Positions 31,606 to 62,532 of a stretch of 64,000 nucleotides of DNA are shown here, piece after piece. The stretch covers positions 30,621 through 94,620 of IMG/VR virus record IMGVR_UViG_3300032050_000049; one strand, written 5' to 3'. Numbering within the stretch: the first letter of the stretch is position 1; each line of letters begins with the position of its first letter. The translations under genes and the position numbers were made by a program. Source of the DNA: a virus (lineage: Duplodnaviria > Heunggongvirae > Uroviricota > Caudoviricetes). Below the pieces are notes generated by a model that saw only the letters and a list, made by a program, of their open reading frames with translations, ran no database searches and was not told the origin of the DNA.

Positions 31606-32680
31606 TGTTTGTCACATACGGAAATCTGGGCAGTTCATCACCAGGTGTAAGATTAAAATATTTCACCGTAGCACTCTTTCCAATAAGTTTATTTTTATTC
31701 TTCAAGAGTTCTTTTAGATATTCCCGAGTGCCTTTGATATTACTATGGAACTCAATTCCCTTATGATTCTTGAATACCATATATCCAGCCATACCACTCT
31801 TGTTGCCTATTCCTTCAACAATATCAAGAATTTTGAATTCACTATCTTGAAATTCTTTACGCTTGAGTAGGTATTTACTGCGCTTGTTTTCATATGGCCC
31901 ATCGGTACGAACCATCTGACCTTCGTAACCTTCGTCAATGTACTTTTCATACAACTCATTCAAATGTGTAATCGTGTCCACAAGGTGAGTCGGAACACGA
32001 CGAACCACATTGTTATTAACAAGATAAGTAGTAATGTCAGCATTACGATCACTAAAAGTCTTCTGTACAATCCAGTCATATACCCAATATTGAATATTCT
32101 TTGCACTCTCAGTCAAATCTTCTGGTGTAGGTTTGGTCTTCTTTACCAAACTACAAATAGCATTAAAATCATTGGCAAACTTATCCGCATACAACTCACC
32201 ATCAAGAATTGCATTTGGGAATTTAACAAAGAAATCCTTCAATGCTACCAATACGTGAGGAGCTGAAACAATAGGTTTACCATTACGACTCCACATACCA
32301 TCTTTCTTTACAACACAACGAATGCCATCCAACTTGGGTTGACTATAAACAGGATACTTCAAATCATCCTTATAATCGTCATAGTTCTTTGCCAACATTG
32401 GCTCAGTAAAACTAACTCCATCAATATCCGTGATTTTTTCAAAGTAACCACTTTCTTTCTTTTTCTTCCAAGTGGCTTTGGCTTCTTTTACAGCTTGATC
32501 TTCATTGGAAGTAGCATTCTTTTTGCCGGTATTTTTACCAACACAAAGAGTCCATTCTGTAATTTGAATAGCCCCATCAAGCTGACCATAATGGGTACGA
32601 TACTTGTTGCCATCAACTTCGATGGTCCAAGTTTGAATAGCACCCGTATTTGTACGGGCGAATAACATAGGTAGTTTCAT
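31583..32680 (-). CDS. ATP-dependent DNA ligase (small, T7- or Chlorella-virus-sized)
   Basis: Motif I 'KLDGIRCV' (KxDG). 365 aa with adenylation and OB-fold layout. Confidence 0.75.
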   Translation of the reverse strand: MKLPMLFARTNTGAIQTWTIEVDGNKYRTHYGQLDGAIQITEWTLCVGKNTGKKNATSNEDQAVKEAKATWKKKKESGYFEKITDIDGVSFTEPMLAKNYDDYKDDLKYPVYSQPKLDGIRCVVKKDGMWSRNGKPIVSAPHVLVALKDFFVKFPNAILDGELYADKFANDFNAICSLVKKTKPTPEDLTESAKNIQYWVYDWIVQKTFSDRNADITTYLVNNNVVRRVPTHLVDTITHLNELYEKYIDEGYEGQMVRTDGPYENKRSKYLLKRKEFQDSEFKILDIVEGIGNKSGMAGYMVFKNHKGIEFHSNIKGTREYLKELLKNKNKLIGKSATVKYFNLTPGDELPRFPYVTNIDRESYE

Positions 32681-32720
32681 ATCTTATATAATATTACCAC
32701 GGTGCAATAAAAAAGTCAAG
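32678..32720 (-). promoter_or_regulatory. Sigma70-like promoter TTGACT-17-TAATAT, 10 nt before the DNA-ligase ATG
   Basis: Minus strand: CTTGACTT TTTTATTGCACCGTGG TAATAT TATATAAGAT ATG. Confidence 0.6.
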
Positions 32721-32742
32721 GAGATTTTCATCGTCCTTGACT
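32708..32742 (-). terminator. Intrinsic terminator downstream of the DUF262 gene, overlapping the DNA-ligase promoter
   Basis: Stem GTCAAGGA/TCCTTGAC with an 11-nt loop; T-tract on the minus strand. Confidence 0.6.
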
Positions 32743-32752
32743 TTGGTGTGGT

Positions 32753-33934
32753 TTAAGCAGAAACCGTGTTGATTTTTGTTTTATACTTATAAACTGCGGT
32801 TACGTTTTCGTCTGTCATTACCTTTGACTTGACCAAACCATTGGAAAGCAATTCATATCGCTTTTGACACTTTGGTGTTTCTCGTCCACGAAGCAATGCT
32901 GCATATGTCATTTTTTTGTCACCAACCTTATGATCAGCTTCTGGATTCTTCTTTAGAAGAGCGTTGATTTCCACAAACTTATACATAAACGTCTTTACAT
33001 CCTTGATCTGATTGCGATGACGGTGATAAAACACGAACAAATCAAATACAGTTTGCTTACTTAGCTTCATACCGTCCTTGAATACATCTTCATTTGGAGC
33101 GACCCACGTATTGAAGAAGTTGTCTACATCATTTTTAAAAAGAGATGACTTGCTGTTTAGCTCAGATCCATCTTCGTATTCACTGCGAAGAATGCCATCA
33201 CTAATATTCTTCTTGAATCCAAAACTATGAAAGAATGCCATACCAGCAAATTGCGAGTCAATCTTACGACGGTTATAATCTTGTTCTGAAAAGATCGAAA
33301 GAATCCAACTACGTGTAGTGAAATCCCGATAATATCTTTCGCCAAATTCACGACAAATCTTTGAAATTGGACTAATAATAGCATTACGCTTTTCAGCCGC
33401 GTTCAATTCACATCCACTATTTACAGCGATGAAAATATCACTCAATTGTGAACGAGTTGCATTGGTATATACTTGAACTGTGATGGTACGAGTTAGAATG
33501 AAATCTTTAACTGATTCACTCAGATCCGCCCATCGTTGGTCACGCTTGATGGTAAACTTATTGTCCAGTTCATCTGAATATGTTCCAGCACGCAATTCAA
33601 GTTGATTTGTAAACAACAAACGCAACGTAGTAAAACGGTTGTTACTATCCAAATTGAGATAGTTAGCTCCCTTGGAAAGCCAACCAGAGTAATAGTTGAT
33701 ATCTTCTGCCAACATTGCACTCTTTCTACATTCAGGAACGTCAGCAAAAATAAACTTGCTTGGAGCAATTCCCTTAAGCAAATTGTGGAGATAACTGCGT
33801 GACTTTGTTGCATCCCAACGAGCGGGACTCTGAAAACTATCGTCGATAAACACACTATCGAGAAACTTCTTTGCATTAGAAAGTTCCCAGTTTTCGGTTG
33901 TGGACTTAACCATCTTTTGATTGTTATTAATCAT
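32753..33934 (-). CDS. DUF262/ParB-like nuclease-NTPase-domain protein
   Basis: 'NLDSNNRFTTL' resembles the DGQQR(L)TT motif of DUF262 and GmrSD N-domains. No HNH C-domain seen. Confidence 0.5.
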   Translation of the reverse strand: MINNNQKMVKSTTENWELSNAKKFLDSVFIDDSFQSPARWDATKSRSYLHNLLKGIAPSKFIFADVPECRKSAMLAEDINYYSGWLSKGANYLNLDSNNRFTTLRLLFTNQLELRAGTYSDELDNKFTIKRDQRWADLSESVKDFILTRTITVQVYTNATRSQLSDIFIAVNSGCELNAAEKRNAIISPISKICREFGERYYRDFTTRSWILSIFSEQDYNRRKIDSQFAGMAFFHSFGFKKNISDGILRSEYEDGSELNSKSSLFKNDVDNFFNTWVAPNEDVFKDGMKLSKQTVFDLFVFYHRHRNQIKDVKTFMYKFVEINALLKKNPEADHKVGDKKMTYAALLRGRETPKCQKRYELLSNGLVKSKVMTDENVTAVYKYKTKINTVSA

Positions 33935-34085
33935 ATTACTTTTTATTTTTTATACTGGAATTTTTGGTTATGACATAATTGTCTAATTAATAATTTTTAT
34001 CTCAGACAGCGTAATTGCTTTTTGGATTCAAATTATCAGTCGTGAACCAGTTACTCACAACAAAATCATCTTATCAGTTGTTTCT

Positions 34086-34607
34086 TTAAAAGTCAAGCGG
34101 AACATTGAGCGTTTTCCAAAACTTTTCGTTGAGAATTTTTATAGGTACTTCGTTTTTTAGCTCAAAATTAGGATGTTCATACACATAATCGAGCAAAGTT
34201 TTTGCTGAAATGTAAAACAACACAATTTTATCACTACACAATTTGGTGCAAAAATACCCACCATTGTTAAGAACTTCAGCTTTATCTTCCCAAATCAATT
34301 TTTTCAAATTGCCCGATGTATGTCCCAGATAAATTGTGTTTGTTGGAGATACACGACGAATGTCTACACGAACAGTGGGGTCATTTGTCAATTCAAAATC
34401 CCACTTACTATTTGCTGGACTCTTTTTGATATTGGTATATTCGCTTTTGGTGGTCAAATAATCCAATATCATTCGTTCAATTAGTTCACCACATCCGCCT
34501 ATTTTAACTTGATTGTAAACATAATCGTTGATCATCTTATAGCGTTTTAATTCTTTAAGATAAATTTCACCCATATTATATACTTCAGATTTGAATTCAA
34601 TATTCAT
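34086..34607 (-). CDS. Hypothetical protein (173 aa)
   Basis: ORF. Confidence 0.5.
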   Translation of the reverse strand: MNIEFKSEVYNMGEIYLKELKRYKMINDYVYNQVKIGGCGELIERMILDYLTTKSEYTNIKKSPANSKWDFELTNDPTVRVDIRRVSPTNTIYLGHTSGNLKKLIWEDKAEVLNNGGYFCTKLCSDKIVLFYISAKTLLDYVYEHPNFELKNEVPIKILNEKFWKTLNVPLDF

Positions 34608-34609: not shown

Positions 34610-35035
34610 TTAATTTTTTACAATTTCACCCTTAGCATCACTATACCACACTTCACCCACATTAAATTGCTTGACCACACTTTGACAACCACAACACGGC
34701 TTGCTGTTGTTCAACTTACCCGTTCGATCCACTCTAAGTACAACCATTTTAAAATCACTCAGATTCTCACGACCACTCTTCATACACACACTCAACTCAG
34801 CGTGAAGTCCAACAAGCTGATGGTTTTTATAATCATATTCCAAAGTCTTGGGATGACTCTTACAGCTGTTTGTACCAATATGTACAATTTTACCACATCG
34901 AATCAAAAAAGCTATATGACTACACCTATGCTCAATGTTGAGCGGACACATAGCCTTAGCAATGTCAATGGTACGCTTCAGAATCTTGCTGTTCATTACT
35001 AAACTCATACTACCATCGACTTTATAAAAAATCAA
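34610..35035 (-). CDS. CDA-fold zinc deaminase (cytidine, dCMP or tRNA deaminase-like)
   Basis: 'HAELSV' ... 'PCCGCQ' (H-A-E / PCxxC). Confidence 0.6.
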   Translation of the reverse strand: MIFYKVDGSMSLVMNSKILKRTIDIAKAMCPLNIEHRCSHIAFLIRCGKIVHIGTNSCKSHPKTLEYDYKNHQLVGLHAELSVCMKSGRENLSDFKMVVLRVDRTGKLNNSKPCCGCQSVVKQFNVGEVWYSDAKGEIVKN

Positions 35036-35086
35036 CTACATTTTTTATATTTTGAAATTTTGAGGTAGTTGTGATATGATATATTT

Positions 35087-35794
35087 ATGGAAAACCTTTA
35101 TGTTGAAAAAATACACAATTCGATTGCCAAAGAATTGATTGTTAAACATCATTATACACACAAGTGGACCATAGCCGAGTTGTGTATCGGAATTTACGAC
35201 AAAAGCAAACGTAGTGTATTTTTTGACGTTCCTACGCTGGTTGGCGCAGTTGTATTTGGACCCACTGCTGGCGCAAATGTGGCTAGAAGTGTGTCTCCAC
35301 TATTAAATCATTCCAATTTATGGGAATTGAAACGATTGTGGGTAGCAGATGAATTGGGTAAAAATACTGAAAGTTGGGTTATTGGTCAATGTTTGAAATA
35401 TATCAAACAACATCACAGTGAAATAAAGTGTTTGATCAGTTATGCTGATCCTGATGCTGGACACATTGGTACCATATATCAAGCTACCAATTGGCTGTAT
35501 CAAGATATTGAAAGACGCAAAGGCACTAGTGGTTATATTGTTAGTTTTGACGGTGGTATTAAATGGCAACACTCACGTACATTATTCAACAAATATGGAA
35601 CATTCAACTATAATAAATTGGTGGAAGTGTTACCCAGACCATTTAAGATCAAAGAATTATCAGTTAAAGAACGATATATTTATCCTTTGGGAAGCAAAGT
35701 GGAAAAGAAAAATCTGATTAAAAGTTTGAATTATCCCATTATAGAATATCCCAAACTCAAATCAGATAAAGAAACTGTAGTGGAATTTAATTAA
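35087..35794 (+). CDS. Hypothetical protein on the opposite strand within the minus block; weak GNAT/Mom-like resemblance (speculative)
   Basis: 'KHHYTHKW', 'WELKRLWVADELGKN'; orientation anomaly. Confidence 0.55.
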   Translation: MENLYVEKIHNSIAKELIVKHHYTHKWTIAELCIGIYDKSKRSVFFDVPTLVGAVVFGPTAGANVARSVSPLLNHSNLWELKRLWVADELGKNTESWVIGQCLKYIKQHHSEIKCLISYADPDAGHIGTIYQATNWLYQDIERRKGTSGYIVSFDGGIKWQHSRTLFNKYGTFNYNKLVEVLPRPFKIKELSVKERYIYPLGSKVEKKNLIKSLNYPIIEYPKLKSDKETVVEFN

Positions 35795-36635
35795 TAATCT
35801 TCAACTGAATGTTGCCAAGTGTAAGATTTTGCACAATAACATTGTTTGCACTCAAAAACTCATACTTGCTTTCAACTCGCTTTACTTTACGATTACCCTT
35901 TTTGCTCTTACGATACACAATAACACCACCACTATAACTGTTGATAATCATCTGCGCAACAGTCTTACGCCATTCATAAGCTGAAAAATTACCAACAGTA
36001 TCAATCAAAATATTACCAGCCACATTGTTCTTAAAATTGTCGTTGGTTTTGATCATAGTCAACAAGGTATCAAACAATTCAAAATCAGAGCTTGAAAATT
36101 CAGTGACCTTTTTACGAAAATATTGATTAAAATATTTGGTAATATCACTATCAACAAAATAGGTATTCAAAATTTTATCACAAAAAGATCGAATTGTAAC
36201 AAGCTCATTGTACTTGTCAGTAACATTGCCACGGGTTTTGATAGCAAAATCAATGATGCCACTTTCTTTCTTCAATTCATAAGACTTATCACCCAACGTA
36301 ACATCTCCAGTCTCACCACGCTTGATGATGCTCTTTCTTGAATTGGCAATCATCAAAAATACAGACAACTCACCACGACCAGTCTGATGCTTGATGTTTT
36401 CAGGTGACGCAAGCACATTGTCAATTTTATGTGCATCACTATTAACATCATTCACCTCTTTGAGAAATGTGTCTACGTTGTCAAATTGCGGAATGCTGTT
36501 GATACCAATATTGGTCAAAGACGCAACCAAAGTGTCAATTTTGGATTGATGTGATTGAGTCTTGAGCTTGTCAAGACCATTTTTGATTTGATCGCTAAAA
36601 AAAGTGGTAGAATTGGTGCTCATTACAAGAACCAA
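35787..36635 (-). CDS. Hypothetical protein (282 aa)
   Basis: ORF. Confidence 0.5.
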   Translation of the reverse strand: MVLVMSTNSTTFFSDQIKNGLDKLKTQSHQSKIDTLVASLTNIGINSIPQFDNVDTFLKEVNDVNSDAHKIDNVLASPENIKHQTGRGELSVFLMIANSRKSIIKRGETGDVTLGDKSYELKKESGIIDFAIKTRGNVTDKYNELVTIRSFCDKILNTYFVDSDITKYFNQYFRKKVTEFSSSDFELFDTLLTMIKTNDNFKNNVAGNILIDTVGNFSAYEWRKTVAQMIINSYSGGVIVYRKSKKGNRKVKRVESKYEFLSANNVIVQNLTLGNIQLKIIN

Positions 36636-36665
36636 TCTACCACACTTTTTTCAAATGTCAACAGC

Positions 36666-38005: not shown

Positions 38006-38045
38006 AAAAAAATAAGGGAGGTACTGTTATATACCTCCCTTTTGA

Positions 38046-39072: not shown

Positions 39073-39390
39073 TTAATAAGAGTCAAACTCAACCTCAAGT
39101 GAATTGAAATTGATAGTAGACGGATCTACATTCAAATCAATACCACCATCAACAACAAAAACCTTCAAATCCTTCTTAATCTCGGTAGAAGGTCCACCAC
39201 TACAGCTACAACCAGAGCTATAACACCAAGTGACGTTACCATCCTTGTCTACACCAACACCCTCATAAGAGTGATGACCATAACCCCAATTCTCATTCTC
39301 AATCTCCTTGAAAATGACAACGATATCATCATCAAACTTGCTCTTAGGAAGAGCGTCCCAATTCTGTACAATGTAATCTACGATATTCAT
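39073..39390 (-). CDS. Hypothetical protein (105 aa)
   Basis: ORF with upstream promoter motif. Confidence 0.45.
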   Translation of the reverse strand: MNIVDYIVQNWDALPKSKFDDDIVVIFKEIENENWGYGHHSYEGVGVDKDGNVTWCYSSGCSCSGGPSTEIKKDLKVFVVDGGIDLNVDPSTINFNSLEVEFDSY

Positions 39391-39429
39391 TACTCATCTA
39401 AGTTACCACGGAGTTTATACAAAGTCAAC
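39388..39429 (-). promoter_or_regulatory. Promoter motif GTTGACTT-N-CCGTGGTAACTT before the 39073..39390 gene
   Basis: GTTGACTTTGTATAAACTCCGTGGTAACTTAGATGAGTA ATG. Confidence 0.5.
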
Positions 39430-40386: not shown

Positions 40387-40627
40387 TTTCTTTATTTTCT
40401 GACTTGATGTTCTTGACCAACTTGGTCACATCACTTTTTAAGATTATCAGCGACCCGATAAAAAGTCCAGCGAAAAGTGCGGTTCCAACAAGATTTGCAA
40501 CGTCACTCTTTTGATTAATTAAATTAGTGGATTGATTAAACAAACAAGCGCCCACTGTAAGTACAACAAAATACTTTGCACAATACTTTACAATATTTTT
40601 ATTACTAAACATAAATTTTTCATTCAT
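40379..40627 (-). CDS. Small membrane protein partner of the SPFH gene
   Basis: Two hydrophobic segments; 8-nt overlap with the SPFH start. Confidence 0.4.
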   Translation of the reverse strand: MNEKFMFSNKNIVKYCAKYFVVLTVGACLFNQSTNLINQKSDVANLVGTALFAGLFIGSLIILKSDVTKLVKNIKSENKENE

Positions 40628-40644
40628 ATCAAATAGACTATACT

Positions 40645-40680
40645 ACAAAAAAGAGGAACTGTCAAGTCCCTCTTAAATGT
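40645..40680 (-). terminator. Intrinsic terminator after the 40683..41327 gene
   Basis: Stem AAGAGG/CCTCTT; minus-strand T-tract 'TTTTTGTAGTATAG' then ATG of the next gene. Confidence 0.5.
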
Positions 40681-41327: not shown

Positions 41328-41778
41328 AAATCATTACATCAATTCCTTCATTAAAGGATGGATCTTCATATTTTGATAGCATCCTATCAATAATATTTGT
41401 AGGCACAACTCTACCACCTTGTTCTCCTCGTTTCTTGTTTCTTTCAATTAATCCTTGACGATCCATCTTGAAAACAATAGCAACTACTTTTGCACCATAT
41501 TTCTTTGCAGTCTTAATATAGTCACTACGTTCCTTACGGTTTACACTGGTTGCGTCAACCAATACATTTTTACCATCTTTTAGAAATTCGTCAACCTTTC
41601 TTTTGATGTGACCGAAAACAAGTGGGGTAACAGTTTGATCTTCTTCACTTTTACCATATACAGCACGTAGTGAATCACTACTTAGATATTCAATATCTTT
41701 GTCTTTAATAAAGTTTTTTGCATATGTGGATTTACCACTTCCAGGCAATCCAACCGCAATATAAAGTGTATTATTCAT
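41320..41778 (-). CDS. Polynucleotide 5'-kinase (T4 Pnk kinase-domain-like)
   Basis: 'GLPGSGKST' Walker A, 'SSDSLR', 'NRKERS', 'ERNKKRG...VP'; collinear with the T4 Pnk N-domain. Confidence 0.75.
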   Translation of the reverse strand: MNNTLYIAVGLPGSGKSTYAKNFIKDKDIEYLSSDSLRAVYGKSEEDQTVTPLVFGHIKRKVDEFLKDGKNVLVDATSVNRKERSDYIKTAKKYGAKVVAIVFKMDRQGLIERNKKRGEQGGRVVPTNIIDRMLSKYEDPSFNEGIDVMIYV

Positions 41779-41813
41779 ATGTACATCTTAACTCAACTTG
41801 TTATAAAGTCAAG
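41776..41813 (-). promoter_or_regulatory. Promoter motif CTTGACTT-16-TAAGAT before the Pnk-kinase gene
   Basis: CTTGACTTTATAACAAGTTGAGTTAAGATGTACAT ATG. Confidence 0.5.
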
Positions 41814-43459: not shown

Positions 43460-44119
43460 TTAAACTAATACAGCGTCATATAACTGGTTTGAATTGGCTG
43501 CTTTTATTCGTAGTTCCACTTTGCCAGCACTTCGAATTACATCAATTACCACGGCACCCATTAAACCATCTGGTTCATTACCTTCATTAGTTACTTCATC
43601 AACTGGTCTTTTTAATCCGCCGGCTGTATAGAGTATATCTAATAATTGTTTAAAGTTTTCGTCACTCCAATTTGGAAAGTTGCTTCTAACATCAGGATCC
43701 CCGCCTCCTTGACTCATACTTACAAAATCTCTAGCGGACATTTGCAAAGATGATGAACCTTTACCAAAATGTTTTATATATTGATTAGCAGTGTTTTTTA
43801 CTTTTTCATCTGAAACACCACTGCCTTTTTTAACAATTTTTACAAACTCATTTCCTTTCAATTCAAAACCACTTTCTTTGAATGCATCCACCAATTCATT
43901 AAATGCATCCGTACCTTTTTCAATATCTAAATCATTCAAAACGGTATCAACTTCAAATGAAGAGGTATAACCACTACTATTTTGATCTAACCAAAAGGCT
44001 AGTTTAGCATCTATAGTGTCGTCGTCAGGCTCAAATAATCCTTCATTCAACTGAAGTTTTTTATTTAGAAGACCCAAATGTTTTTTAAATGTTTCGTTAA
44101 GTAAATTGCTCATATACAA
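43460..44119 (-). CDS. Hypothetical protein (219 aa), partial paralog of 42307..43380
   Basis: Shared 'NETFKKHLGLLNKKL' module. Confidence 0.5.
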   Translation of the reverse strand: MYMSNLLNETFKKHLGLLNKKLQLNEGLFEPDDDTIDAKLAFWLDQNSSGYTSSFEVDTVLNDLDIEKGTDAFNELVDAFKESGFELKGNEFVKIVKKGSGVSDEKVKNTANQYIKHFGKGSSSLQMSARDFVSMSQGGGDPDVRSNFPNWSDENFKQLLDILYTAGGLKRPVDEVTNEGNEPDGLMGAVVIDVIRSAGKVELRIKAANSNQLYDAVLV

Positions 44120-44130
44120 TAAATATATAC

Positions 44131-44164
44131 AAAAAAATAAAACCCATCAAATTAATGATGGGTT
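44131..44164 (-). terminator. Intrinsic terminator after the Rnl1-like gene
   Basis: AACCCATCA-AATTAA-TGATGGGTT; minus-strand T-tract 'TTTATTTTTTTG'. Confidence 0.7.
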
Positions 44165-44170
44165 CTACTA

Positions 44171-45262
44171 TTAGTTCTTTAAGACTTGGAACATCAACTT
44201 CTTATATTCTTCCTTACCTAATGGACGATTATCCAAGAGTTTAAATACAAAAGCAGCTCTGTTTGTTTCACCATAAGATGAAATAACCAGTTGTGCTTGT
44301 TCTTTTCTGGTAGGCAATGAACGAAGTCTGTTATTCACAAAACTATTCATACCATCCACAATCTTGTTTACTTCCTTCTTACCATCCGCAATACGGCTAA
44401 TAGTACCTTTAATTTGTTCTGCTAACTCGAAATCAAAGGTGGTAAAGATATAGTTATAAAAAGTGTTGTAGTCAGGCATACCCTGTTCCAACCACACATC
44501 CATAATTTTTTCCAGTGAACTAAGTTCAGACTTTAGATGATGTAACAGGAGATATTTAGATGCTTTAATCTTATGAATAGTCTGATCATTCTTACTATAT
44601 AAGCATACGCCTTCTTTATCTTGCCACTTATCTACAATCTGTAACATATCAGTTATATCAGTAAAAGTATAGATTTCCGGACGAAGTAAATCATACTTCT
44701 TAGCCATAGCATCCAACATATCTTGTTGTGCAAGTGAATAGTTGATATGATTAATAAAACCAATCAACTTCCACATAGGTTCATCGCCATACGATAACAC
44801 AATTTTATTGATTGGAGACAGCCATTCCCAAATGATAGAATAACCCCAAGTATCATTGTTATCCTGTAACTTACTTAGAATAGTTGACTTGAACAATTCT
44901 AACTCAAAACCATTAGCCATAGTAGAAGCATCAACAGTTCCACGGGTTCGTAGAATATATTGACCCTTATACTTGCTAACAATCAAAGTGCTACCGTCCA
45001 ACTTTTCAACAACAGTGCAATGCTTCAATGAAGCAGGAACAGGAAAGTGTTCAGGATTCTCCCCATAGTTAGTAAACTTCGGAAATGATGCACTAATAAC
45101 TTCACCCTCATAATTCACAACCACACTACGCATGTGCTTGTTGTCTTGCGTCCACTTAGTGCCAATATTTTGGGGTTGAATCAAATGGACAATTTCACCG
45201 AAAGCGTGGAAATGGTGCACCATAAATTGAGTGCGGTCAACCTTATCTATGTCAATTTTCAT
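44171..45262 (-). CDS. RNA ligase, T4 Rnl1-like
   Basis: Motif I 'VVEKLDGSTL'. N-terminal 'NYEGE...PKF.N.GENPE' parallels T4 RnlA 'FEMDGEKP...EKFFNLNENP'. Confidence 0.7.
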   Translation of the reverse strand: MKIDIDKVDRTQFMVHHFHAFGEIVHLIQPQNIGTKWTQDNKHMRSVVVNYEGEVISASFPKFTNYGENPEHFPVPASLKHCTVVEKLDGSTLIVSKYKGQYILRTRGTVDASTMANGFELELFKSTILSKLQDNNDTWGYSIIWEWLSPINKIVLSYGDEPMWKLIGFINHINYSLAQQDMLDAMAKKYDLLRPEIYTFTDITDMLQIVDKWQDKEGVCLYSKNDQTIHKIKASKYLLLHHLKSELSSLEKIMDVWLEQGMPDYNTFYNYIFTTFDFELAEQIKGTISRIADGKKEVNKIVDGMNSFVNNRLRSLPTRKEQAQLVISSYGETNRAAFVFKLLDNRPLGKEEYKKLMFQVLKN

Positions 45263-45298
45263 AGATTTATCTTACAACAGATTTTAAAGAAAGTCAAG
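45260..45298 (-). promoter_or_regulatory. Promoter TTGACT-17-TAAGAT before the Rnl1-like gene
   Basis: CTTGACTT TCTTTAAAATCTGTTG TAAGAT AAATCT ATG. Confidence 0.55.
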
Positions 45299-45626
45299 GT
45301 TCATCTTCAACATTTTCACCACATTCTTTGCAACTATCAAATAGTAGAAACAAAGACAGTTTTTCTTCCATTTTTTCTTTGCTTCCAAAGTGTTCTGTAA
45401 GTATTTCGTCTGCTTTGATATCATCTTTCCAACCAGCCCAATTTCCGTCACCGGGAGTTCCACCCAATTCCAGATAATTACACCAAGGAAATTCCACACC
45501 ATTGACATTTTTTACATCATAGTATGGACACCGATTTACTGTGCCACGATAGTTGTTACTTTCACTAGGAACCTCTTTCCAAGTGTAACAATAATCTCCT
45601 TTGGGTATGACACTAGTGTCTTTCAT
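45294..45626 (-). CDS. Hypothetical protein (110 aa)
   Basis: ORF with promoter motif. Confidence 0.45.
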   Translation of the reverse strand: MKDTSVIPKGDYCYTWKEVPSESNNYRGTVNRCPYYDVKNVNGVEFPWCNYLELGGTPGDGNWAGWKDDIKADEILTEHFGSKEKMEEKLSLFLLFDSCKECGENVEDEP

Positions 45627-45662
45627 ACAACTACATTACTACACAGTTTAGAATAAGTCAAG
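45624..45662 (-). promoter_or_regulatory. Promoter TTGACT-17-TAATGT
   Basis: CTTGACTT ATTCTAAACTGTGTAG TAATGT AGTTGT ATG. Confidence 0.55.
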
Positions 45663-46066: not shown

Positions 46067-46588
46067 TCAAAGTAGAGTTATATCTTCGTATCTGATTACC
46101 CAACCACCCTTTTTATTAATATCATCATTCACAGTTACTTCATAAGTTTCTGGTTTAATGCCGGTAATATAGTGATTTTCATACTTCTTATAACCTTGTT
46201 TGGCATTTACCTTTTTGCCAATTACATCACTAGGAATCTCTAGAAAATTCTCTTTGGTCCATTGTCCAATAATTTCTTTGGTCAAACTATCCTTGATAGT
46301 ACTAACACCATCCAGAATATATACCAATTCACTATCTGGTTCAATATACTTATATTCACTCAAATATTGAGCAAGTGTAAATCCATCAGTATCAGATTCA
46401 AACAAACAATCAATAATGTCTTGTTCATAGGTTTCCTGTGTTTCTTCATAACCGCCACCAGAGGTACACCAATTTATATATTGATCAACAACACGATTAA
46501 AGTGTTTGTTTTCACGGTTAATATTTTCCCTTGAAAATTTAGGACGCTTAACCTTGTCTTGTAGCTTCATATAGGTTTGTTCACTCAT
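46067..46588 (-). CDS. Hypothetical protein (173 aa)
   Basis: ORF with promoter motif. Confidence 0.5.
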   Translation of the reverse strand: MSEQTYMKLQDKVKRPKFSRENINRENKHFNRVVDQYINWCTSGGGYEETQETYEQDIIDCLFESDTDGFTLAQYLSEYKYIEPDSELVYILDGVSTIKDSLTKEIIGQWTKENFLEIPSDVIGKKVNAKQGYKKYENHYITGIKPETYEVTVNDDINKKGGWVIRYEDITLL

Positions 46589-46627
46589 AACTTTATAAGA
46601 TTACCACACAGTTTATAACAAGTCAAG
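46586..46627 (-). promoter_or_regulatory. Promoter TTGACT-17-TAATCT
   Basis: CTTGACTT GTTATAAACTGTGTGG TAATCT TATAAAGTT ATG. Confidence 0.55.
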
Positions 46628-47448: not shown

Positions 47449-47661
47449 TTATTCTACCTTTCCATATACAGTTTCAACATCAATATAATAATTAGGCAAT
47501 CCAAATGGACGAATAGTGAACTTCCAAGTCTTTTCCCTATCCTTGAAGTTATAACCACTAATAAATCCAATACCACGGTTAGTGTTTACCTTGTCACCAA
47601 AATGATAAGGAAGAGGATTTTCAGCAAGAACTTTGGCGAACAACTCATTATTATTGATCAT
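47449..47661 (-). CDS. Hypothetical protein (70 aa)
   Basis: Preceded by TTGACA-17-TAAAGT. Confidence 0.4.
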   Translation of the reverse strand: MINNNELFAKVLAENPLPYHFGDKVNTNRGIGFISGYNFKDREKTWKFTIRPFGLPNYYIDVETVYGKVE

Positions 47662-47698
47662 ATAACAACTTTACCCCAACTTTTTTTAAATGTCAAAC
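47659..47698 (-). promoter_or_regulatory. Promoter TTGACA-17-TAAAGT
   Basis: TTTGACA TTTAAAAAAAGTTGGGG TAAAGT TGTTAT ATG. Confidence 0.55.
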
Positions 47699-48213: not shown

Positions 48214-48740
48214 TAGTATTTTGCAAATAGTTCTAGACCTTTTTGTTTGCGTTCTTGTAATTCATTGTGTTTTTTCATCCACTCATCAAAAGATTGTTTT
48301 TGTTCTGGAGTTTTTCCTTTATTTAGAAGCCATTCTGTATCTCCAAGATAATGTGGAAATGGATTGAATCGTTCGTCATCATTTAGATATTCAAATGTCC
48401 AAATAAGTTCATCAAGTACATTTTCCCATTCTTCTGGTGTGAAATCTGGATGATAACCATACCGTTTCATTTTCTTGAAGTGTTTTAGTCTGGGTAGAAT
48501 AAACTTACTGAATGTACCATCCAAACTCCAACATTCTTCATTACTTACACCATAACGCATACGTTGATATGTACTAATAAACCATCGTTTAATGTCATGA
48601 CATTTGTAATATACACGCCAACCATATGGTACTGTATCAAACAACCAGTCACCAAATTTATTGGTTCTATACCATTTTTCTTCTGAAAGAGGTGTGTTTT
48701 CAGAATCTTCTAATCGTTCGTTGATTTTTTTGAGATCCAT
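48195..48740 (-). CDS. Hypothetical protein (181 aa)
   Basis: ORF with terminator-promoter unit upstream. Confidence 0.5.
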   Translation of the reverse strand: MDLKKINERLEDSENTPLSEEKWYRTNKFGDWLFDTVPYGWRVYYKCHDIKRWFISTYQRMRYGVSNEECWSLDGTFSKFILPRLKHFKKMKRYGYHPDFTPEEWENVLDELIWTFEYLNDDERFNPFPHYLGDTEWLLNKGKTPEQKQSFDEWMKKHNELQERKQKGLELFAKYYCHLWD

Positions 48741-48775
48741 ATTACAACTATATCACAGAGTGTATATGTGTCAAA
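48738..48775 (-). promoter_or_regulatory. Promoter TTTGACA-17-ATAGTT immediately after a terminator
   Basis: TTTGACA CATATACACTCTGTGAT ATAGTT GTAAT ATG. Confidence 0.45.
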
Positions 48776-48803
48776 CAAAAAACCCCACATTTTACTGTGG
48801 GGT
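48771..48803 (-). terminator. Intrinsic terminator after 48829..49050, fused to the TTTGACA promoter of 48195..48740
   Basis: CCCCACA-TTTTAC-TGTGGGG with a minus-strand T-tract. Confidence 0.7.
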
Positions 48804-49360: not shown

Positions 49361-50140
49361 TTACAGATCGCTATAGTTCTTCAGTTCAATCTTACCATTT
49401 AGTATGGTAATATACTGACTAAGATTACAATCAATACAAATGTTGTTTGCATCAACGATATTAGCAAATCCTTCTCTATGATATTGTGCGGCTTTACCAG
49501 TTCGCCATTGATTTGTATGACCCACAATTTGTCTCAACTCTTCAATGGGTTGAAACTCTTCGTTAAAATCACACCAAACAATACCACCACATTTGTTTCT
49601 ACCACCCCTTGCATATCCAGCGCCATAAAACCAATGTGGTTCATTGATCTTTAGTTTGGTTCTAGCATCATTATCACTTTGATCCAGATACTTGAAGATA
49701 ACTTCATTTGTGGCACAAATTGGAGGTAACAAACGTTTATCCAATCCAGCGTGGGTTAATAGAATATCATCTACAACAATCGACCAGTGAAACTTATCTT
49801 GTATATCACCTCTGACCTTGCCAATAACGTTATCAATTGCATCATACTTCCATTGTTCATAACCACTACACCAAGATGTAGAAGCATTAAACAGATAGTG
49901 TATATCGTGATTACCAAATAGAGTATAGTTCTTTGGGTTAGGAAGAAATACATCTCTTAGATATTTGGCTGTAGCAACATAGTCAGTAACATCATCCAAA
50001 TTGAAACTATCAAACCAATCACCCAAACAAATGTTGATATCGCCATCTTCTTTGGTAAAGATGGTATCCAACTTTGTGTAATGATTATGTGGATCAGCAG
50101 CAATTACAATCTTTTGTTTATTGGAACTAAACTTTAGCAT
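49361..50140 (-). CDS. Calcineurin-like metallophosphoesterase (Ser/Thr-phosphatase-like)
   Basis: 'AADPHNHY', 'GDWFDSF', 'GNHD'. Confidence 0.65.
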   Translation of the reverse strand: MLKFSSNKQKIVIAADPHNHYTKLDTIFTKEDGDINICLGDWFDSFNLDDVTDYVATAKYLRDVFLPNPKNYTLFGNHDIHYLFNASTSWCSGYEQWKYDAIDNVIGKVRGDIQDKFHWSIVVDDILLTHAGLDKRLLPPICATNEVIFKYLDQSDNDARTKLKINEPHWFYGAGYARGGRNKCGGIVWCDFNEEFQPIEELRQIVGHTNQWRTGKAAQYHREGFANIVDANNICIDCNLSQYITILNGKIELKNYSDL

Positions 50141-50176
50141 ACTGAGAGTATAACACGATTATTTTTAAAAGTCAAG
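50138..50176 (-). promoter_or_regulatory. Promoter TTGACT-17-TATACT
   Basis: CTTGACTT TTAAAAATAATCGTGT TATACT CTCAGT ATG. Confidence 0.6.
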
Positions 50177-53244: not shown

Positions 53245-54373
53245 TTGTTGGGTGTGATTGATAATCTATTAACTTAATATCATCATATTTAAAATCAAAT
53301 AATGATTTTATTTCAGGATTCAACCACAATTTTGGTAACTTCATTGGTTCTCTTGACATTTGTAGTTTAATTTGATCCAAATGGTTCGTATACAAATGTG
53401 CGTCACCGATTGAGTATGTCAATGTACCAGTAGCCATATTGCTTACATGCGACATCATTGCTACCATCAGTGCATATGATGCTATATTAAATGGCTTCCC
53501 AAGAAAAATATCATTTGATCTGATTGTCATCATTAAATTCAAACGACGGGTTGGAATATTAGCGTCATTTAATACTTTTTCATTCATTTCAGGCACAGAT
53601 ACCCATCCTTTATTTCCTCCTGATTTTCTGTATAAATCAAATCGTTCTTCCAGTGTCAATTCTTCTGTATTAAAAATTAGAAAACAATGACAGGGCGGTA
53701 AGGCGCAATGATCTACCCAATGTGGATGCCATGCTGATACGATCATACGACGATCATCTGGATTGGTTTTTAGCTTGTCAATTACTTTTTGTAGTTGATC
53801 TATTCTACCAAAAAACCACGATTCGGCATAATCACCTTTTGTTCCACTCACAGTACCTTTGGGACAAGTGCTTGCATCATTATCATTCACGGTGGTATAA
53901 AACGGAAAATTTCTCCACATTCCGCCATACGTTCCTTCACCTAATTCACCCCATAAAAGTGCAAAATTTGGGTCATCTTTAATTTCTTGAATGAAACGCT
54001 CTTGAGTCCAAGAAGACCGCCACCGATTCCCACCCAAATCGCCATACGGATTTGCTTCATAGGTTTCTTCAGGATGAGATTTGCAAAAATCAATATAGCG
54101 TTTATATGCCCACTCATTCCAGATTCTAACGTTATTGTCAACCAGATACTTGATATTTGTATCACCACTAATGAACCACAGCAATTCGTGAACAATAGCT
54201 GGCCAATGAACTTTCTTTGTGGTTAATAGAGGAAATGCATTTAGATCCACATTGTATTTGGCTTGAGCACCAAAAATGCCAATGGTATCTACCCCAGTTC
54301 TGTTCTTTTTAAGTTTTCCGTTTGTCAAAATATCATTGACAATTCTGAAATATTCTGTGTCTACTTTGTTCAT
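53222..54373 (-). CDS. thyA: Thymidylate synthase (ThyA, long form with two insertions)
   Basis: 'RTGVDTIGIFG', 'DDRRMIVSAWHP', catalytic 'PPCHCFLIFN', 'FNIASYALMVAMMSHV', 'GDAHLYTNH'. Confidence 0.85.
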   Translation of the reverse strand: MNKVDTEYFRIVNDILTNGKLKKNRTGVDTIGIFGAQAKYNVDLNAFPLLTTKKVHWPAIVHELLWFISGDTNIKYLVDNNVRIWNEWAYKRYIDFCKSHPEETYEANPYGDLGGNRWRSSWTQERFIQEIKDDPNFALLWGELGEGTYGGMWRNFPFYTTVNDNDASTCPKGTVSGTKGDYAESWFFGRIDQLQKVIDKLKTNPDDRRMIVSAWHPHWVDHCALPPCHCFLIFNTEELTLEERFDLYRKSGGNKGWVSVPEMNEKVLNDANIPTRRLNLMMTIRSNDIFLGKPFNIASYALMVAMMSHVSNMATGTLTYSIGDAHLYTNHLDQIKLQMSREPMKLPKLWLNPEIKSLFDFKYDDIKLIDYQSHPTIKADVAV

Positions 54374-54411
54374 ATTATTTAGTATACATTATAACTTTGT
54401 GTAGGTCAAAT
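54371..54411 (-). promoter_or_regulatory. Internal promoter TTGACC-17-TATACT for thyA, inside the DHFR 3' end
   Basis: ATTTGACC TACACAAAGTTATAATG TATACT AAATAAT ATG. Confidence 0.5.
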
Positions 54412-57609: not shown

Positions 57610-57988
57610 ATCGTATATCTAATTTCGCTGTAGGAGTATAAGTGCCCAATCCAATATTGCCATTTGAAGCAATGGTCAATCGTGATTCTACACCATAATA
57701 TCCAAATGAATTTGTTTCTGCTTTAACTACAGCTGGTTTATTTAGTGGCGAACAAATATTGATTGAAATATTCTCACTATTATTAACTAGGATTTCAAAG
57801 TTATCACTATCTCTGAATTGCATTACACAAGTAGCACCATCACTACGAGTAAATACAAGTTTTTCACAAGTTAATACTTTTTCAGACGAAGAAGCTGGTT
57901 CTGATGCTTTAACAGTTGAACCAGCAACAACACCTGCGATTCCTCCAAATAGGGTGGAGAAAAACCCTTTACGATTTAGTTTTTCCAT
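57599..57988 (-). CDS. Secreted hypothetical protein
   Basis: N-terminal signal peptide. Confidence 0.45.
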   Translation of the reverse strand: MEKLNRKGFFSTLFGGIAGVVAGSTVKASEPASSSEKVLTCEKLVFTRSDGATCVMQFRDSDNFEILVNNSENISINICSPLNKPAVVKAETNSFGYYGVESRLTIASNGNIGLGTYTPTAKLDIRCDS

Positions 57989-58028
57989 ATAATATACTAT
58001 ATCATAGTATGGATACTAAATCAATATT

Positions 58029-58346
58029 TTATTTCTTAAATAGTTCTTTGATACTAACTCCGTGTTTGTTGTCTTTGAAAGACCAAATGGATGGTTTCTT
58101 TTTTAGATATAGATCTTGATTAGCATACAACTCTTTTACACAATTATCTGTTTTAACGATGACCACTTTGTGTTTACCATCTGCGTCTAGTTGGTTTTTG
58201 AATTGAACTAAATGACCGTCTGACCAAGCCATTTGTTGTTTACATACAATACAAGTTCTACCAGACTTTTTCTTGGCAAAGATACTTGCATTTGCATTTG
58301 TTGCGGTTAATACTAATAGTCCAACAATTAATAATACTTTATTCAT
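58029..58346 (-). CDS. Secreted hypothetical protein
   Basis: Signal peptide 'MNKVLLIVGLLVLTATNANA'. Confidence 0.45.
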   Translation of the reverse strand: MNKVLLIVGLLVLTATNANASIFAKKKSGRTCIVCKQQMAWSDGHLVQFKNQLDADGKHKVVIVKTDNCVKELYANQDLYLKKKPSIWSFKDNKHGVSIKELFKK

Positions 58347-58380
58347 AATAACTCAAAGATAACATATATCGAATACAATG

Positions 58381-59406
58381 TCAACGTATATAATAAAGAA
58401 CACGTTGCAAAACATATTGATAGGTATCAAACCATTTTTTATTACCCAACTGATATTTTGGTATCTTACTCAAGTCAATTGATTCACTATAAATTGCATA
58501 TGAACTTAAATAAGCATCATTACAATTGGCGTGTTGTTCATAATGATTAGGCATTGGTATCATCAACAATGGTTTGTTTTGATATATAGCTTCAGCACTT
58601 GTTTCAAATCCACCACTACATACTACTGCCTTACATACCTTCATCTTTTCTTGAAATAGTTTACCATCAAGATTAAATAATTTTAAATTTGGTAGTTCAT
58701 CATATTGTTTGGTTAATTTGGTAAAACAATGAATATTGATATCTGGATATTTTTTTGCTTGATTAATCAATTGCGGTAACATATCTTCATTCATTAGATA
58801 TACCAACACAAAGTCTTCTTGTTTGTGTGATACACTATAACTTTCACTTCTTAATATTGGAGGACTTGCAATCATAACATCATCATTAAATTCATAATAA
58901 CTTAATGCTACGATTTTGGATCTGATACTAGTGATTTTGTTTATGATATTTAAAAATAACTTTTGTACAGGATATCCATTGATTCGTGGATATATAATAG
59001 AATCCATTGCGTATTGATGTCCAAAGCTTACATACTTTATGTTTTTAAAGAATAATGCGGTTAGACCTACCAGTGGTTCATAATAGTTGAATATAGCATC
59101 TGGTTTTTCTTTTTGGATGATGCTACAGATTTTAATGAATGATACAATTAAGCGTGGTAATTCAAATGTGTTGTTCAATATGGTTTTCCAGATAACAACT
59201 CTACCTACACTATCAAATACAAAATCAAATCCATCATAGTCTACTACGTTAAATTCGTCTGTAAAATATTTAGATAACCCCCGTTTCTTTTTAGCTGCAA
59301 AAGCAGTTGTTACCTCAATGCCTTGCGATTGTAGATATTGTTTGGTTGCTATAGCTTGTGTAATGTGTCCATTACCTTCAGTTTGAACTCCGAATAATAT
59401 CTTCAT
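58381..59406 (-). CDS. GT28-family glycosyltransferase (UgtP/MGDG-synthase-like diacylglycerol glycosyltransferase)
   Basis: N-terminal 'QTEGNGHITQAIATKQYL' against UgtP 'ANYGNGHVQVAKTLYEQ'. C-terminal GT-B motif 'VCSGGFETSAEAIYQNKPLLMIPMPNHYEQHANCN'. Confidence 0.65.
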   Translation of the reverse strand: MKILFGVQTEGNGHITQAIATKQYLQSQGIEVTTAFAAKKKRGLSKYFTDEFNVVDYDGFDFVFDSVGRVVIWKTILNNTFELPRLIVSFIKICSIIQKEKPDAIFNYYEPLVGLTALFFKNIKYVSFGHQYAMDSIIYPRINGYPVQKLFLNIINKITSIRSKIVALSYYEFNDDVMIASPPILRSESYSVSHKQEDFVLVYLMNEDMLPQLINQAKKYPDINIHCFTKLTKQYDELPNLKLFNLDGKLFQEKMKVCKAVVCSGGFETSAEAIYQNKPLLMIPMPNHYEQHANCNDAYLSSYAIYSESIDLSKIPKYQLGNKKWFDTYQYVLQRVLYYIR

Positions 59407-61453: not shown

Positions 61454-61456
61454 ATA

Positions 61457-61897
61457 TTAGTGTCCTTTACTATTATCAATTTTGACGGGAGCAGTTAGTA
61501 TTTCTTTATTTTTGTTATAATTGCCTAGATACTTGTATTCACGTTGAACAAATTGTAGAACACCACCGGTTCGTTCATATACCATAAAGCCAAAGTGTTC
61601 ATATACGACTCTACCAATGGTAGTTTTGATACCTAGAGGTAGTTCAACGATATCACCCTCATATAGATATTCACCGTTTGTGGCTTTAAAGCCGGTACAC
61701 AGTTCAATTTTATAAGCTTCTTGGTCTACATCACATTTTGATGCATCGTCTTGATTAGTACCAATAGATGTTACAAAGTCAACAAGATTACCATTAGGGT
61801 CTAGGTAATAGTTTGATGTGCAATGTAGTGATGAACCGGGATATTCAGGTTCGTGAGTATAACATTCAGCATTTTTGCTCCAGATACGATATTTCAT
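61457..61897 (-). CDS. YopX-domain protein
   Basis: 'MKYRIW...CTGFKATNGEYLYEGDIV'. Confidence 0.6.
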   Translation of the reverse strand: MKYRIWSKNAECYTHEPEYPGSSLHCTSNYYLDPNGNLVDFVTSIGTNQDDASKCDVDQEAYKIELCTGFKATNGEYLYEGDIVELPLGIKTTIGRVVYEHFGFMVYERTGGVLQFVQREYKYLGNYNKNKEILTAPVKIDNSKGH

Positions 61898-61900
61898 AAA

Positions 61901-62158
61901 TTAATAACCAGTTTGTCTAGTGACACTAAACCCAAATCCAAACAATGTCAACTCAAAATAAGTCCAAACATCATCTTTTCGATAACTTAGTGTGGTATTG
62001 AAGTTTACATCAATAAATTTTGTTGCATAGTTGTTTATCCAAGCGTCACCGGGTTTAGTTCCAAATTTGATTATGGGTAGATGAAGATGAATTTCAAAGA
62101 TATCAAATAGGTCTTCTTTATTTTTTTTAGAGTATAAGCGCATATATTTTATCTCCAA
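61901..62158 (-). CDS. Hypothetical protein (85 aa)
   Basis: ORF. Confidence 0.4.
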   Translation of the reverse strand: MEIKYMRLYSKKNKEDLFDIFEIHLHLPIIKFGTKPGDAWINNYATKFIDVNFNTTLSYRKDDVWTYFELTLFGFGFSVTRQTGY

Positions 62159-62496
62159 GTTCTATGTTCTTCCGCAATATATTCTCCCCCACCTTGTTCA
62201 CGGTTGTCAATATACCATTTGATACCATCTGGTATTTCGACTACTTTAAGTTTGCAACGTTTTCCGTGACTTGATTTTTCACCCAGAGTTTCTACAACTT
62301 TTACAAGATCTGGGTCACTTCTGTCGAATGTCCATTCATCAATTATATTTTCTTCACTTTCTTCATTTTTATAGAAATCCCTATAAACATCATTTCCATC
62401 TTTAATTAGATTATAACCTTTAAATTTAGCGTATAAAGCATGAGCTTCATCACTTAATCTAAAAGCTCCATAGCTTGAGTTGATAACCACTTTCAT
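62149..62496 (-). CDS. Hypothetical protein (115 aa)
   Basis: ORF with promoter motif. Confidence 0.45.
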   Translation of the reverse strand: MKVVINSSYGAFRLSDEAHALYAKFKGYNLIKDGNDVYRDFYKNEESEENIIDEWTFDRSDPDLVKVVETLGEKSSHGKRCKLKVVEIPDGIKWYIDNREQGGGEYIAEEHRTWR

Positions 62497-62532
62497 AGTC
62501 TTACTTTACCACGGGTTTTTATGAAAGTCAAG
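62494..62532 (-). promoter_or_regulatory. Promoter TTGACT-17-TAAAGT
   Basis: CTTGACTT TCATAAAAACCCGTGG TAAAGT AAGACT ATG. Confidence 0.55.

Follow-up and report, generated by a model that had tools for sequence, protein, structure and literature searches.

The 64-kb stretch of tailed-phage DNA analysed here in full, and hereafter called the window (positions 30,621 to 94,620 of IMG/VR virus record IMGVR_UViG_3300032050_000049), has a G + C content of about 35% and is laid out as two gene blocks of opposite orientation. Genes on the plus strand fill roughly the first 29.3 kb and encode large tail-fibre or baseplate-like proteins. Those on the minus strand run from 29.8 to 64 kb, and among their products are an ATP-dependent DNA ligase, Rnl2-like and Rnl1-like RNA ligases, a polynucleotide kinase and a phosphoesterase, thymidylate synthase, an SPFH protein and glycosyltransferases, together with numerous small ORFans; a Mom-like gene lies inside this second block on the plus strand. 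The subject of this report is a compact module resembling a σ70-family promoter, copies of which end directly on the start codons of genes in the minus-strand block (Table 1).

To count the module, we used the strict pattern TTGACN{17,18}TANNNTN{6,10}ATG and took the chance expectation from 100 dinucleotide-preserving shuffles. This returned 14 copies against 1.19 ± 1.19 expected, a number that none of the 100 shuffles reached. Every one of them is a minus-strand copy located between 32678 and 62531, each ends on an ATG that opens an open reading frame (ORF) of 70-383 residues, and each precedes a non-structural gene, with not one copy before the 29 structural genes of the plus strand. When the ATG was no longer required, the bipartite motif was found 22 times (10.4 ± 3.7 expected), and the eight copies that do not adjoin a start codon are at or below chance, from which it follows that the motif is not equally frequent in coding sequence. 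About five weaker copies, having one mismatch in the -35 box, also adjoin start codons, these being at 35052-35089 on the plus strand and at four minus-strand ATGs. A generic low-stringency promoter scan, in turn, showed no enrichment (85 vs 78.8; 97 vs 104), as is to be expected for A + T-rich DNA, and the signal resides in the strict motif plus its position. Nothing convincing as a late-promoter motif was detected before the plus-strand genes, and no late promoter motif of the T4 type was found there.

For a description of the module's anatomy, we assembled 136 distinct copies from the window and its relatives in IMG/VR and Joint Genome Institute (JGI) metagenomes. Since these had been selected with TTGAC and TA...T, the positions of the two boxes were also scored separately over 1284 distinct ORF starts from the window and relatives. 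Here, TTGAC with no -10 constraint begins 34-40 nt before the ATG at 154 starts, as compared with 2-3 per position elsewhere, and TANNNT with no -35 constraint ends 6 nt before the ATG at 130 starts, as compared with about 40 at neighbouring distances. Each box is thus independently positioned with respect to the start codon.

Table 1. Promoter-like modules and associated features of the window. Layout gives the -35 box, spacer length, -10 box and the gap from the -10 box to the ATG.
Feature	Position	Strand	ATG	Layout	Remarks
Module before DNA ligase gene (31583-32680)	32678..32719	-	32680	TTGACT, 17 nt, TAATAT, 10 nt	Kept before ligase orthologs
Module	36621..36661	-	36623	TTGACA, 16 nt, TAGATT, 10 nt	278-aa ORF
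Module	39388..39428	-	39390	TTGACT, 17 nt, TAACTT, 9 nt	Hairpin and T-run directly before
Terminator hairpin and module	40625..40674	-	40627	TTGACA, TATAGT, 9 nt	Hairpin 40674-40651; its loop is the -35 box
Module, polynucleotide kinase domain	41776..41812	-	41778	TTGACT, 16 nt, TAAGAT, 6 nt	
Module before RNA ligase 1 gene (44171-45262)	45260..45297	-	45262	TTGACT, 17 nt, TAAGAT, 6 nt	-35 TGA is the upstream stop
Module	45624..45661	-	45626	TTGACT, 17 nt, TAATGT, 6 nt	-35 TGA is the stop of ORF 45658-46065
Module	46586..46626	-	46588	TTGACT, 17 nt, TAATCT, 9 nt	-35 TGA is the upstream ORF's stop
Module	47659..47696	-	47661	TTGACA, 17 nt, TAAAGT, 6 nt	
Terminator fused to module	48738..48803	-	48740	TTGACA, 16 nt, TATAGT, 6 nt	Terminator 48803-48782; -35 box at 48774
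Module	50138..50175	-	50140	TTGACT, 17 nt, TATACT, 6 nt	Upstream ORF's TAA within the spacer
Promoter-like module, thymidylate synthase	54371..54409	-	54373	TTGACC, 17 nt, TATACT, 7 nt	Lies within the upstream gene's 3' end; of the 14, the least certain
Module	58344..58384	-	58346	TTGACA, 17 nt, TATCTT, 9 nt	-35 TGA is the stop of glycosyltransferase gene 58381-59406
Module	62494..62531	-	62496	TTGACT, 17 nt, TAAAGT, 6 nt	-35 TGA is the stop of ORF 62528-62737
Weaker divergent pair, minus half	within 34994..35089	-	34996	TTGATT, 17 nt, TAGTAT, 10 nt	
Weaker divergent pair, plus half	within 34994..35089	+	35087	TTGAAA, 17 nt, TATGAT, 6 nt	Mom-like gene
Terminator and weak module	44111..44169	-	44113	TTGATG, 17 nt, TATATT, 8 nt	Terminator 44169-44136; sister copy 43436-43380
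Weaker module	57986..58024	-	57988	TTGATT, 17 nt, TATAGT, 7 nt	
Weaker module	62735..62773	-	62737	CTGACT, 16 nt, TATAAT, 8 nt	
Module of the same class, no abutting ATG	34068..34096	-		TTGACT..TAAGAT	About 127 nt, A/T-rich, to ATG 33934
TGA of -35 box as upstream stop	45292-45297, 45656-45661, 46621-46626, 58379-58384, 62526-62531	-			
Nucleotidyltransferase	37054-37785	-			RNA-repair set
Rnl2-like ligase	38046-39098	-			RNA-repair set
Phosphoesterase	40683-41327	-			RNA-repair set
Polynucleotide kinase domain	41320-41778	-			RNA-repair set
Rnl1-like ligase	44171-45262	-			RNA-repair set

The -35 box reads TTGAC(T/A), with TTGAC exact in the 14 window modules, and the -10 box reads TAnnnT. 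Between them, 72 of the 136 modules have a spacer of 17 bp and 63 have one of 16 bp, while a single module has 18 bp. Positions -17 to -13 are T, R, T, G and G (T-17 0.55, R-16 0.87, T-15 0.72, G-14 0.75), a stretch that reads as an extended -10 or TRTG element, and an A-tract occupies -23 to -20. In its succession of -35 box, 16/17-bp spacer, A-tract, extended -10 and TAnnnT, the module therefore looks like a σ70-family promoter. An earlier note on this DNA, prepared from the sequence alone, had described a shared module of σ70-like anatomy before at least 11 minus-strand genes (32678-62532) and taken it for a dedicated promoter class, and our counts and anatomy bear this out. Two of its details did not survive, as the C or G said to precede TTGAC is not conserved, and the spacer string said to be conserved, AAACTGTGTRGTAAT, is found in exact form only in the promoters at 45661 and 46626, whereas what the modules have in general is the T-17 to G-13 stretch plus the A-tract. 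The same note was right that several promoters are fused to the preceding terminator. GC-rich terminators composed of a hairpin and a T-run are enriched in the region (16 vs 7.3 expected), and three are joined to modules, with 48803-48782 leading into a -35 box, 40674-40651 holding one in its loop, and another hairpin and T-run situated upstream of 39428. Overall, a stem-loop is present at 3-5 of the approximately 19 modules (the one at 44169-44136 included), and most are without one. A bidirectional-looking terminator hairpin repeat was also observed, in which AACCCCACTA...TAGTGGGGTT occurs twice and a variant reads AACCCATCA...TGATGGGTT (42262-42287, 43409-43436 and 44136-44169); reading along the minus strand, one finds TTTTTTTGTA(g)ATATATTTAT and next an ATG after every copy.

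The module is also tightly packed against the gene before it. In five of the 14 window modules, the upstream ORF stops in frame at the TGA of the -35 box, as it does in 40 of 140 modules in relatives, whereas in three more window modules (-35 boxes 54409, 50175 and 47696) the upstream ORF ends elsewhere inside the module. As a result of the stop falling within the -35 box, the module is often the entire intergenic region, with gene end, promoter and next start packed into 35-41 bp. Moreover, the modules are breakpoints at which cassettes have been gained, lost or replaced among relatives. Two relatives (L038 and L035) lack ORF 45294-45626, a 110-residue cassette, and the alignments to either side of the gap have 41 nt in common, which fall on the module; another (L039) lacks two cassettes; and in three (L027, L056 and L063) this junction is occupied by unrelated cassettes, each about 330 nt long. 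Neither of these roles, as complete intergenic region or as recombination breakpoint, had been noticed in the earlier note.

Such breakpoints recall the promoter-early stem-loops (PeSLs) of T4-type phages (Arbiol 2010, PMC2839356; Comeau 2014, PMC4122927), and it could be argued that the modules are mainly recombination or cassette-boundary repeats of that kind, with a promoter shape that is secondary or vestigial. Besides the indel and replacement breakpoints inside the module, this would account for the at least 41 different upstream flanks that adjoin the one module preceding RNA ligase 1, and for neighbouring copies that are near-identical, such as modules 45661 and 46626. However, conservation sits on the contacts of σ70 (TTGAC, T-15/G-14, T-12/A-11/T-7 and the 16/17-bp spacing) and the rest varies, and a pure recombination site has no need of a fixed distance to the ATG. 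Promoter and recombination roles are also compatible, and the explanation that we favour holds both. Accordingly, we judge a mainly recombinational role very unlikely.

As for that distance, seven of the window's modules have 6 nt between the -10 box and the ATG, one has 7 nt, four have 9 nt and two have 10 nt. Among the 136 modules, it is 6 nt in 64, 7 nt in 11, 8 nt in 14, 9 nt in 21 and 10 nt in 18, so that 92 fall within 5-8 nt and 75 within 6-7 nt. For RNA ligase 1 orthologs, where 104 metagenome contigs gave 48 distinct upstream regions, the gap is exactly 6 nt in 43 of these, even as 13 hexamers and 41 upstream flanks are represented. With the gap fixed and the bases variable, the spacing is evidently constrained and the sequence free. 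A σ70-type holoenzyme usually starts transcription 7 nt past the last base of the -10 hexamer, and by the usual initiation rule, position -1 is a pyrimidine and +1 a purine. In the 6-nt class, the A of the ATG is at this expected +1 and a T stands just before it, in keeping with the rule.

The start codons themselves appear sound. Leaderless initiation strongly favours AUG, and all 14 modules end on ATG, though the search pattern itself required it. Competing GTG or TTG starts are absent from the ORF lists, save for TTG 36635, the listed longest-ORF start of ORF 35787-36635 on the minus strand. This TTG falls within the spacer/-10 region of a promoter and is most likely an artefact, with ATG 36623 as the true start. 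The DNA ligase aligns to its homologs from residues 1-6, residue 7 of thymidylate synthase (ThyA) matches position 2 of the Pfam profile, and the polynucleotide kinase aligns from residues 1-4, with its P-loop at about residue 10. Homology this close to residue 1 shows that ORF calling has not misplaced the start codons. To take a -10 box adjoining an ORF as the sign of a leaderless mRNA is published logic for the Actinobacteria and Deinococcus-Thermus (PMC3160421, PMC12340547). By the same logic, mRNAs that are leaderless or have a leader of at most 4 nt would be the best reading of the modules. The predicted start of transcription would then be either the ATG's own A or a base 2-4 nt upstream, given that the gap is 6-7 nt in eight of the 14 modules and 9-10 nt in the other six.

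As for the signals for translation, Shine-Dalgarno (SD)-like 4-mers at -18 to -4 occur in 7% of window genes, as against 6% of random 15-mers, and are at background in every gene class. A T at -1 is found at 73% of the window's start sites, whether preceded by a promoter or not, and upstream regions are A/T-rich. We applied one script to 11 comparator phages for SD usage. Three phages of Bacteroidota proved to be as SD-free as the window (SD-like words in 9% for Cellulophaga phi38:1, 5% for Flavobacterium 11b and 8% for Tenacibaculum pT24), and the eight others use SD at 22-64%, among them pelagiphage HTVC008M (50%), Caulobacter phage Cr30 (44%), OM43 phage Melnitz (64%), the 595-kb LR756511 (48%) and the cyanophages S-CREM1 (22%), Mic1 (25%) and My-WqHQDG (41%). 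As a clue to the host, a resemblance to phages of SAR11, Caulobacter, cyanobacteria or OM43, or to the LR756511 type, was consequently rejected, as those phages use SD and the window does not. The T at -1 is likewise frequent in phi38:1 (61%) and 11b (58%), stands at about 35-48% in pT24, and is not shared by the SAR11, OM43, Caulobacter and cyanobacterial phages.

Several observations weigh against a leaderless reading, and are brought together here. First among them, SD is absent genome-wide, and its absence is therefore not diagnostic for the genes behind a module. Thus, where the earlier note had pointed to the missing SD before these genes, the statement is true but carries no weight, and the AAGGA/AAGGT that it saw before a few genes is merely at background rate. 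Its placing of the ATG at the expected +1 holds for the modules with 6-7 nt and for the distance kept across relatives, but less well for those with 9-10 nt, for which a leader of 2-4 nt is more likely than a true 5'-AUG, and which would thus not be strictly leaderless. One copy of the same class (34096) would be the sole leadered exception, with a leader of about 127 nt, although it alternatively precedes an 18-codon GTG ORF (VSNWFTTDNLNPKSNYAV). This copy has the same TTGACTTTTAA overlap with the upstream stop, and the segment 33935-34096 may stand for an exception with a leader, or else encode a small peptide or a small RNA. In some relatives, the RNA ligase 1 gene is an internal cistron with no module, which means that the same ATG also works when leadered and SD-free, and that a 5'-AUG is not required for its translation. 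The first 40 nt of promoter-abutted genes are not less structured than those of other genes (-3.1 vs -2.0 kcal/mol, p = 0.16). Contig ends in the 104 metagenome contigs do not pile up at the ATG, but this is uninformative because the contigs are DNA assemblies. Finally, we infer both the σ factor that would read the modules, putatively the host's primary one, and their early timing from just gene content and motif shape. On the whole, then, the observation made in the earlier note is confirmed, and its interpretation as leaderless early promoters is partly supported.

Much of this evidence could be claimed by a simpler account, in which the modules are ordinary promoters squeezed by genome compaction, and mRNAs with leaders of 2-6 nt take the same SD-independent 30S route as internal cistrons, with no 5'-AUG/70S mechanism involved. 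The six modules with 9-10 nt after the -10 box, the lack of SD in all genes, the T at -1 with or without a promoter, the like 5' structure in both gene sets, and the module-less orthologs, which are evidently still expressed, all agree with it. Yet, the modal gap is exactly 6 nt, both in the 136 modules and before RNA ligase 1, and makes the ATG's A coincide with the canonical +1. Moreover, a leader of 0-4 nt is too short to enter the ribosomal mRNA channel on the upstream side of the P site, and initiation must therefore differ from that at internal cistrons. With these points in mind, we find compaction by itself an unlikely explanation.

Which polymerase would read the modules bears on the question of the host. 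The RNA polymerase of Bacteroidota uses TAnnTTTG promoters, not TTGACA/TATAAT, and its mRNAs are mostly leadered, with a mean leader of 33 nt (PMC6847099). Our positive control, phage pT24, indeed has plain TAnnTTTG promoters and leaders of about 20 nt. In the window, there is no excess of TANNTTTG / TAnnTTTG (113 vs 99.6 ± 10.5 expected), and there is little of the A-rich -13 box that characterises start sites in Bacteroidota. Bacteroidota-type promoters were hence rejected for the window, where translation signals match the Bacteroidota phages and promoters do not. Put differently, the translation signals resemble those of SD-blind (Bacteroidota-type) hosts, while the promoters look to be of the canonical σ70 type.

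One way to reconcile the two would be for a σ70-family factor, encoded or modified by the phage, to read the modules as middle promoters, in place of the host's primary σ factor straight after infection, in an SD-blind host such as a member of the Bacteroidota, whose own promoters are different. Of the 11 comparators, only the three Bacteroidota phages share the window's background level of SD, two of them also share the frequent T at -1, and the host polymerase would not by itself use TTGACA/TATAAT. Even so, no σ70-family gene was detected in the window or in 2.3 Mb of relatives' loci (tblastn with an approximate query; genomes partly covered). Furthermore, pT24 has its TAnnTTTG promoters, its leaders and a lower frequency of T at -1, the window lacks the TAnnTTTG excess and has the weak -13 box, and the host may be another SD-poor lineage with a canonical σ70. 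We therefore regard a phage-specific factor as rather unlikely.

The lack of SD also invites comparison with archaea, in which leaderless mRNAs and SD absence are common. If the window belonged to an archaeal virus, TTGACT would be the B recognition element (BRE), TTTnTAAA in the spacer the TATA box and TAnnnT a proximal element, and the T-rich then A-rich stretch of the spacer, centred about 24-25 nt before the ATG, would fit as well as the leaderless, SD-free habit. As opposed to this, GC-rich hairpin and T-run terminators are enriched and fused to modules; the TG of the extended -10, the invariant TA...T and the 16/17-bp spacing are signatures of σ70; the TATA-like stretch amounts to 0.4-0.8 bits; and every protein relative comes from bacterial phages. 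An archaeal origin is thus scarcely credible.

Regarding the phage itself, a DNA search with 8 kb of the window against a phage collection returned zero matches, and tblastn with six window proteins gave only distant and mixed phage relatives (27-48% identity), all from bacterial phages. Against the GTDB species representatives, nothing was found for Rnl1, and the best cellular homologs of ThyA, at 34-38% identity, are spread over many phyla. Exact-protein look-ups matched only metagenome contigs, and identical or related contigs are frequent in freshwater metagenomes and IMG/VR, with sizes of up to 173 kb and one of 296 kb. JGI samples 3300032093 and 3300023179 are examples from lakes rich in this phage. 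Because no close sequenced phage exists among these matches, and long freshwater contigs are common, the source of the window is an abundant, uncultured, large freshwater tailed phage. The largest relative (L074, IMGVR_UViG_3300023179_004209; 295,831 bp) has 94% protein identity to the gene at the left end of the window, and other long relatives, such as 3300034073_003944 (173,066 bp) and 3300007171_000018 (171,680 bp), measure about 171-173 kb. Jumbo phages may belong to the lineage, or else the 295,831-bp contig may be chimeric or a concatemer. A 20-kb walk upstream along it revealed just further tail-fibre genes.

The run of tail-fibre or baseplate-wedge-like genes is unusually long, exceeding 45 kb when window positions 1-29300 are joined with the upstream parts of L074 and L177. 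It contains two tandem sets of paralogs, one of three genes at 9330-11449 and one at 20691-26543 whose five genes have Gly-rich C-termini, and its shared domains match mainly structural proteins of cyanomyoviruses, Rhizobium phages and Caulobacter phages. In the minus-strand block, the five genes at 37054-45262 make up a complete RNA-repair set (Table 1), which suggests a defence against a host anticodon nuclease. The thymidylate synthase gene (53222-54373, minus strand) codes for 383 residues, with an insertion of about 100 residues relative to the 266-position Pfam profile. No tRNA genes were found in the window, nor did any Rfam family match in it.

Among known systems, PeSLs offer the closest parallel in function. 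They too are repeated σ70-consensus promoters before ORFans and accessory genes in a plastic region, some of their copies are combined with a terminator stem-loop, cases of overlap with the -35 to -10 segment included, and the breakpoints of cassette insertion, deletion and replacement lie inside the motif. PeSLs, however, finish with an SD before the ATG, whereas the modules have neither an SD nor room for one, their ATG lying no more than 4 nt from the expected +1, and only a minority carries a stem-loop. The window does have T4-like accessory genes (Rnl1, Rnl2-like, Pnk, td and ligase) and tail-fibre domains common to the Kyanoviridae, but no T4 core genes were found in it or in the 20-kb upstream walk. 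By analogy, then, the modules would work like PeSLs, but we do not class them as such, since they lack the defining terminal SD.

Leaderless genes of Deinococcus-Thermus and Actinobacteria are similar in having TANNNT a few base pairs before the start at a specific spacing, with transcripts that begin at or next to the AUG (PMC12340547, PMC3160421, PMC4007540). There, on the other hand, a -35 box is either missing or weak and genes with a leader rely on SD, while in the present phage the unit is a cassette with -35, extended -10 and -10 elements near consensus, and no gene uses SD. Among viruses, a precedent is the lytic Thermus phage phiYS40 (and P23-45), in which a whole middle/late class is expressed from leaderless mRNAs (PMC3594737, citing the primary work). 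This phage is reported to shift the IF2/IF3 balance, and its host phylum is already rich in leaderless mRNAs. What would be shared is the expression of a phage gene class via leaderless mRNAs, here predicted from sequence; what differs is that the class in the window is non-structural and presumably early or middle, and that no link to a translation factor was found. Bacteroidota and their phages have in common with the window the background level of SD words, A/T-rich upstream regions and, in two of the three comparator phages, the T at -1 (PMC6847099, PMC7797042), but they differ in their leadered TAnnTTTG promoters, as does pT24, from the canonical σ70-type promoters seen here.

The classic leaderless phage mRNA, also mentioned in PMC3160421, is that of lambda PRM-cI, made from a σ70 promoter that starts transcription on the AUG's A. 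This, though, is one regulatory gene in an SD-using genome, and not a genome-wide class of cassettes.

In sum, we propose that at least 14 genes of the nucleotide-metabolism, RNA-repair and ORFan block, and probably about five further ones, would each have their own compact promoter for a bacterial σ70-family holoenzyme. The resulting leaderless or near-leaderless mRNAs would be translated via recognition of the 5'-terminal AUG and not by SD pairing. Translation in the host, or of the phage, would be SD-independent in general, as downstream cistrons and every other phage gene are without SD. The module would double as a homology patch for the gain, loss and replacement of cassettes. Taken as a whole, with leaderless promoter cassettes of σ70 type in an SD-free phage serving also as recombination joints, this explanation seems to us likely. 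Each ingredient is already known, be it σ70 early promoters, leaderless mRNAs adjacent to a -10 box, the leaderless class of phiYS40 or PeSL joints. Their combination, that of a near-consensus unit with the ATG at the expected +1, an upstream stop inside it, cassette shuffling and an SD-free phage, stands firmly as an observation, with a plausible but unproven mechanism. In the literature searched, we found no account of this combination, or of leaderless promoter cassettes in T4-like or freshwater phages.

For gene annotation, TTG 36635 serves as an example that gene callers reliant on SD will misplace starts in such phages. For the biology of the lineage, the pairing of SD-free translation with canonical σ70 promoters is a clue either to the host or to a phage strategy for monopolising translation. 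In its boldest and, to our minds, doubtful form, the proposal would have a widespread freshwater lineage run its whole non-structural programme from 'zero-UTR' (untranslated region) cassettes of about 35 bp that hold the stop codon in the -35 box and put the start codon at +1, with translation that ignores SD and with canonical σ70 promoters. Were this true, the host could be SD-blind (Bacteroidota-like), with the phage bringing or encoding the σ70-type specificity, or else all mRNAs could be kept SD-free and leaderless so as to remain translatable after the phage disables the host's SD-dependent initiation. If the 5' ends are confirmed, the modules would constitute a natural and abundant promoter class built for 5'-AUG mRNAs, in which the intergenic space is the promoter alone, a minimal expression cassette of use for compact synthetic constructs. 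The idea behind PeSLs, that promoter units act as recombination joints for accessory genes, would thereby extend to a unit that has no ribosome-binding site.

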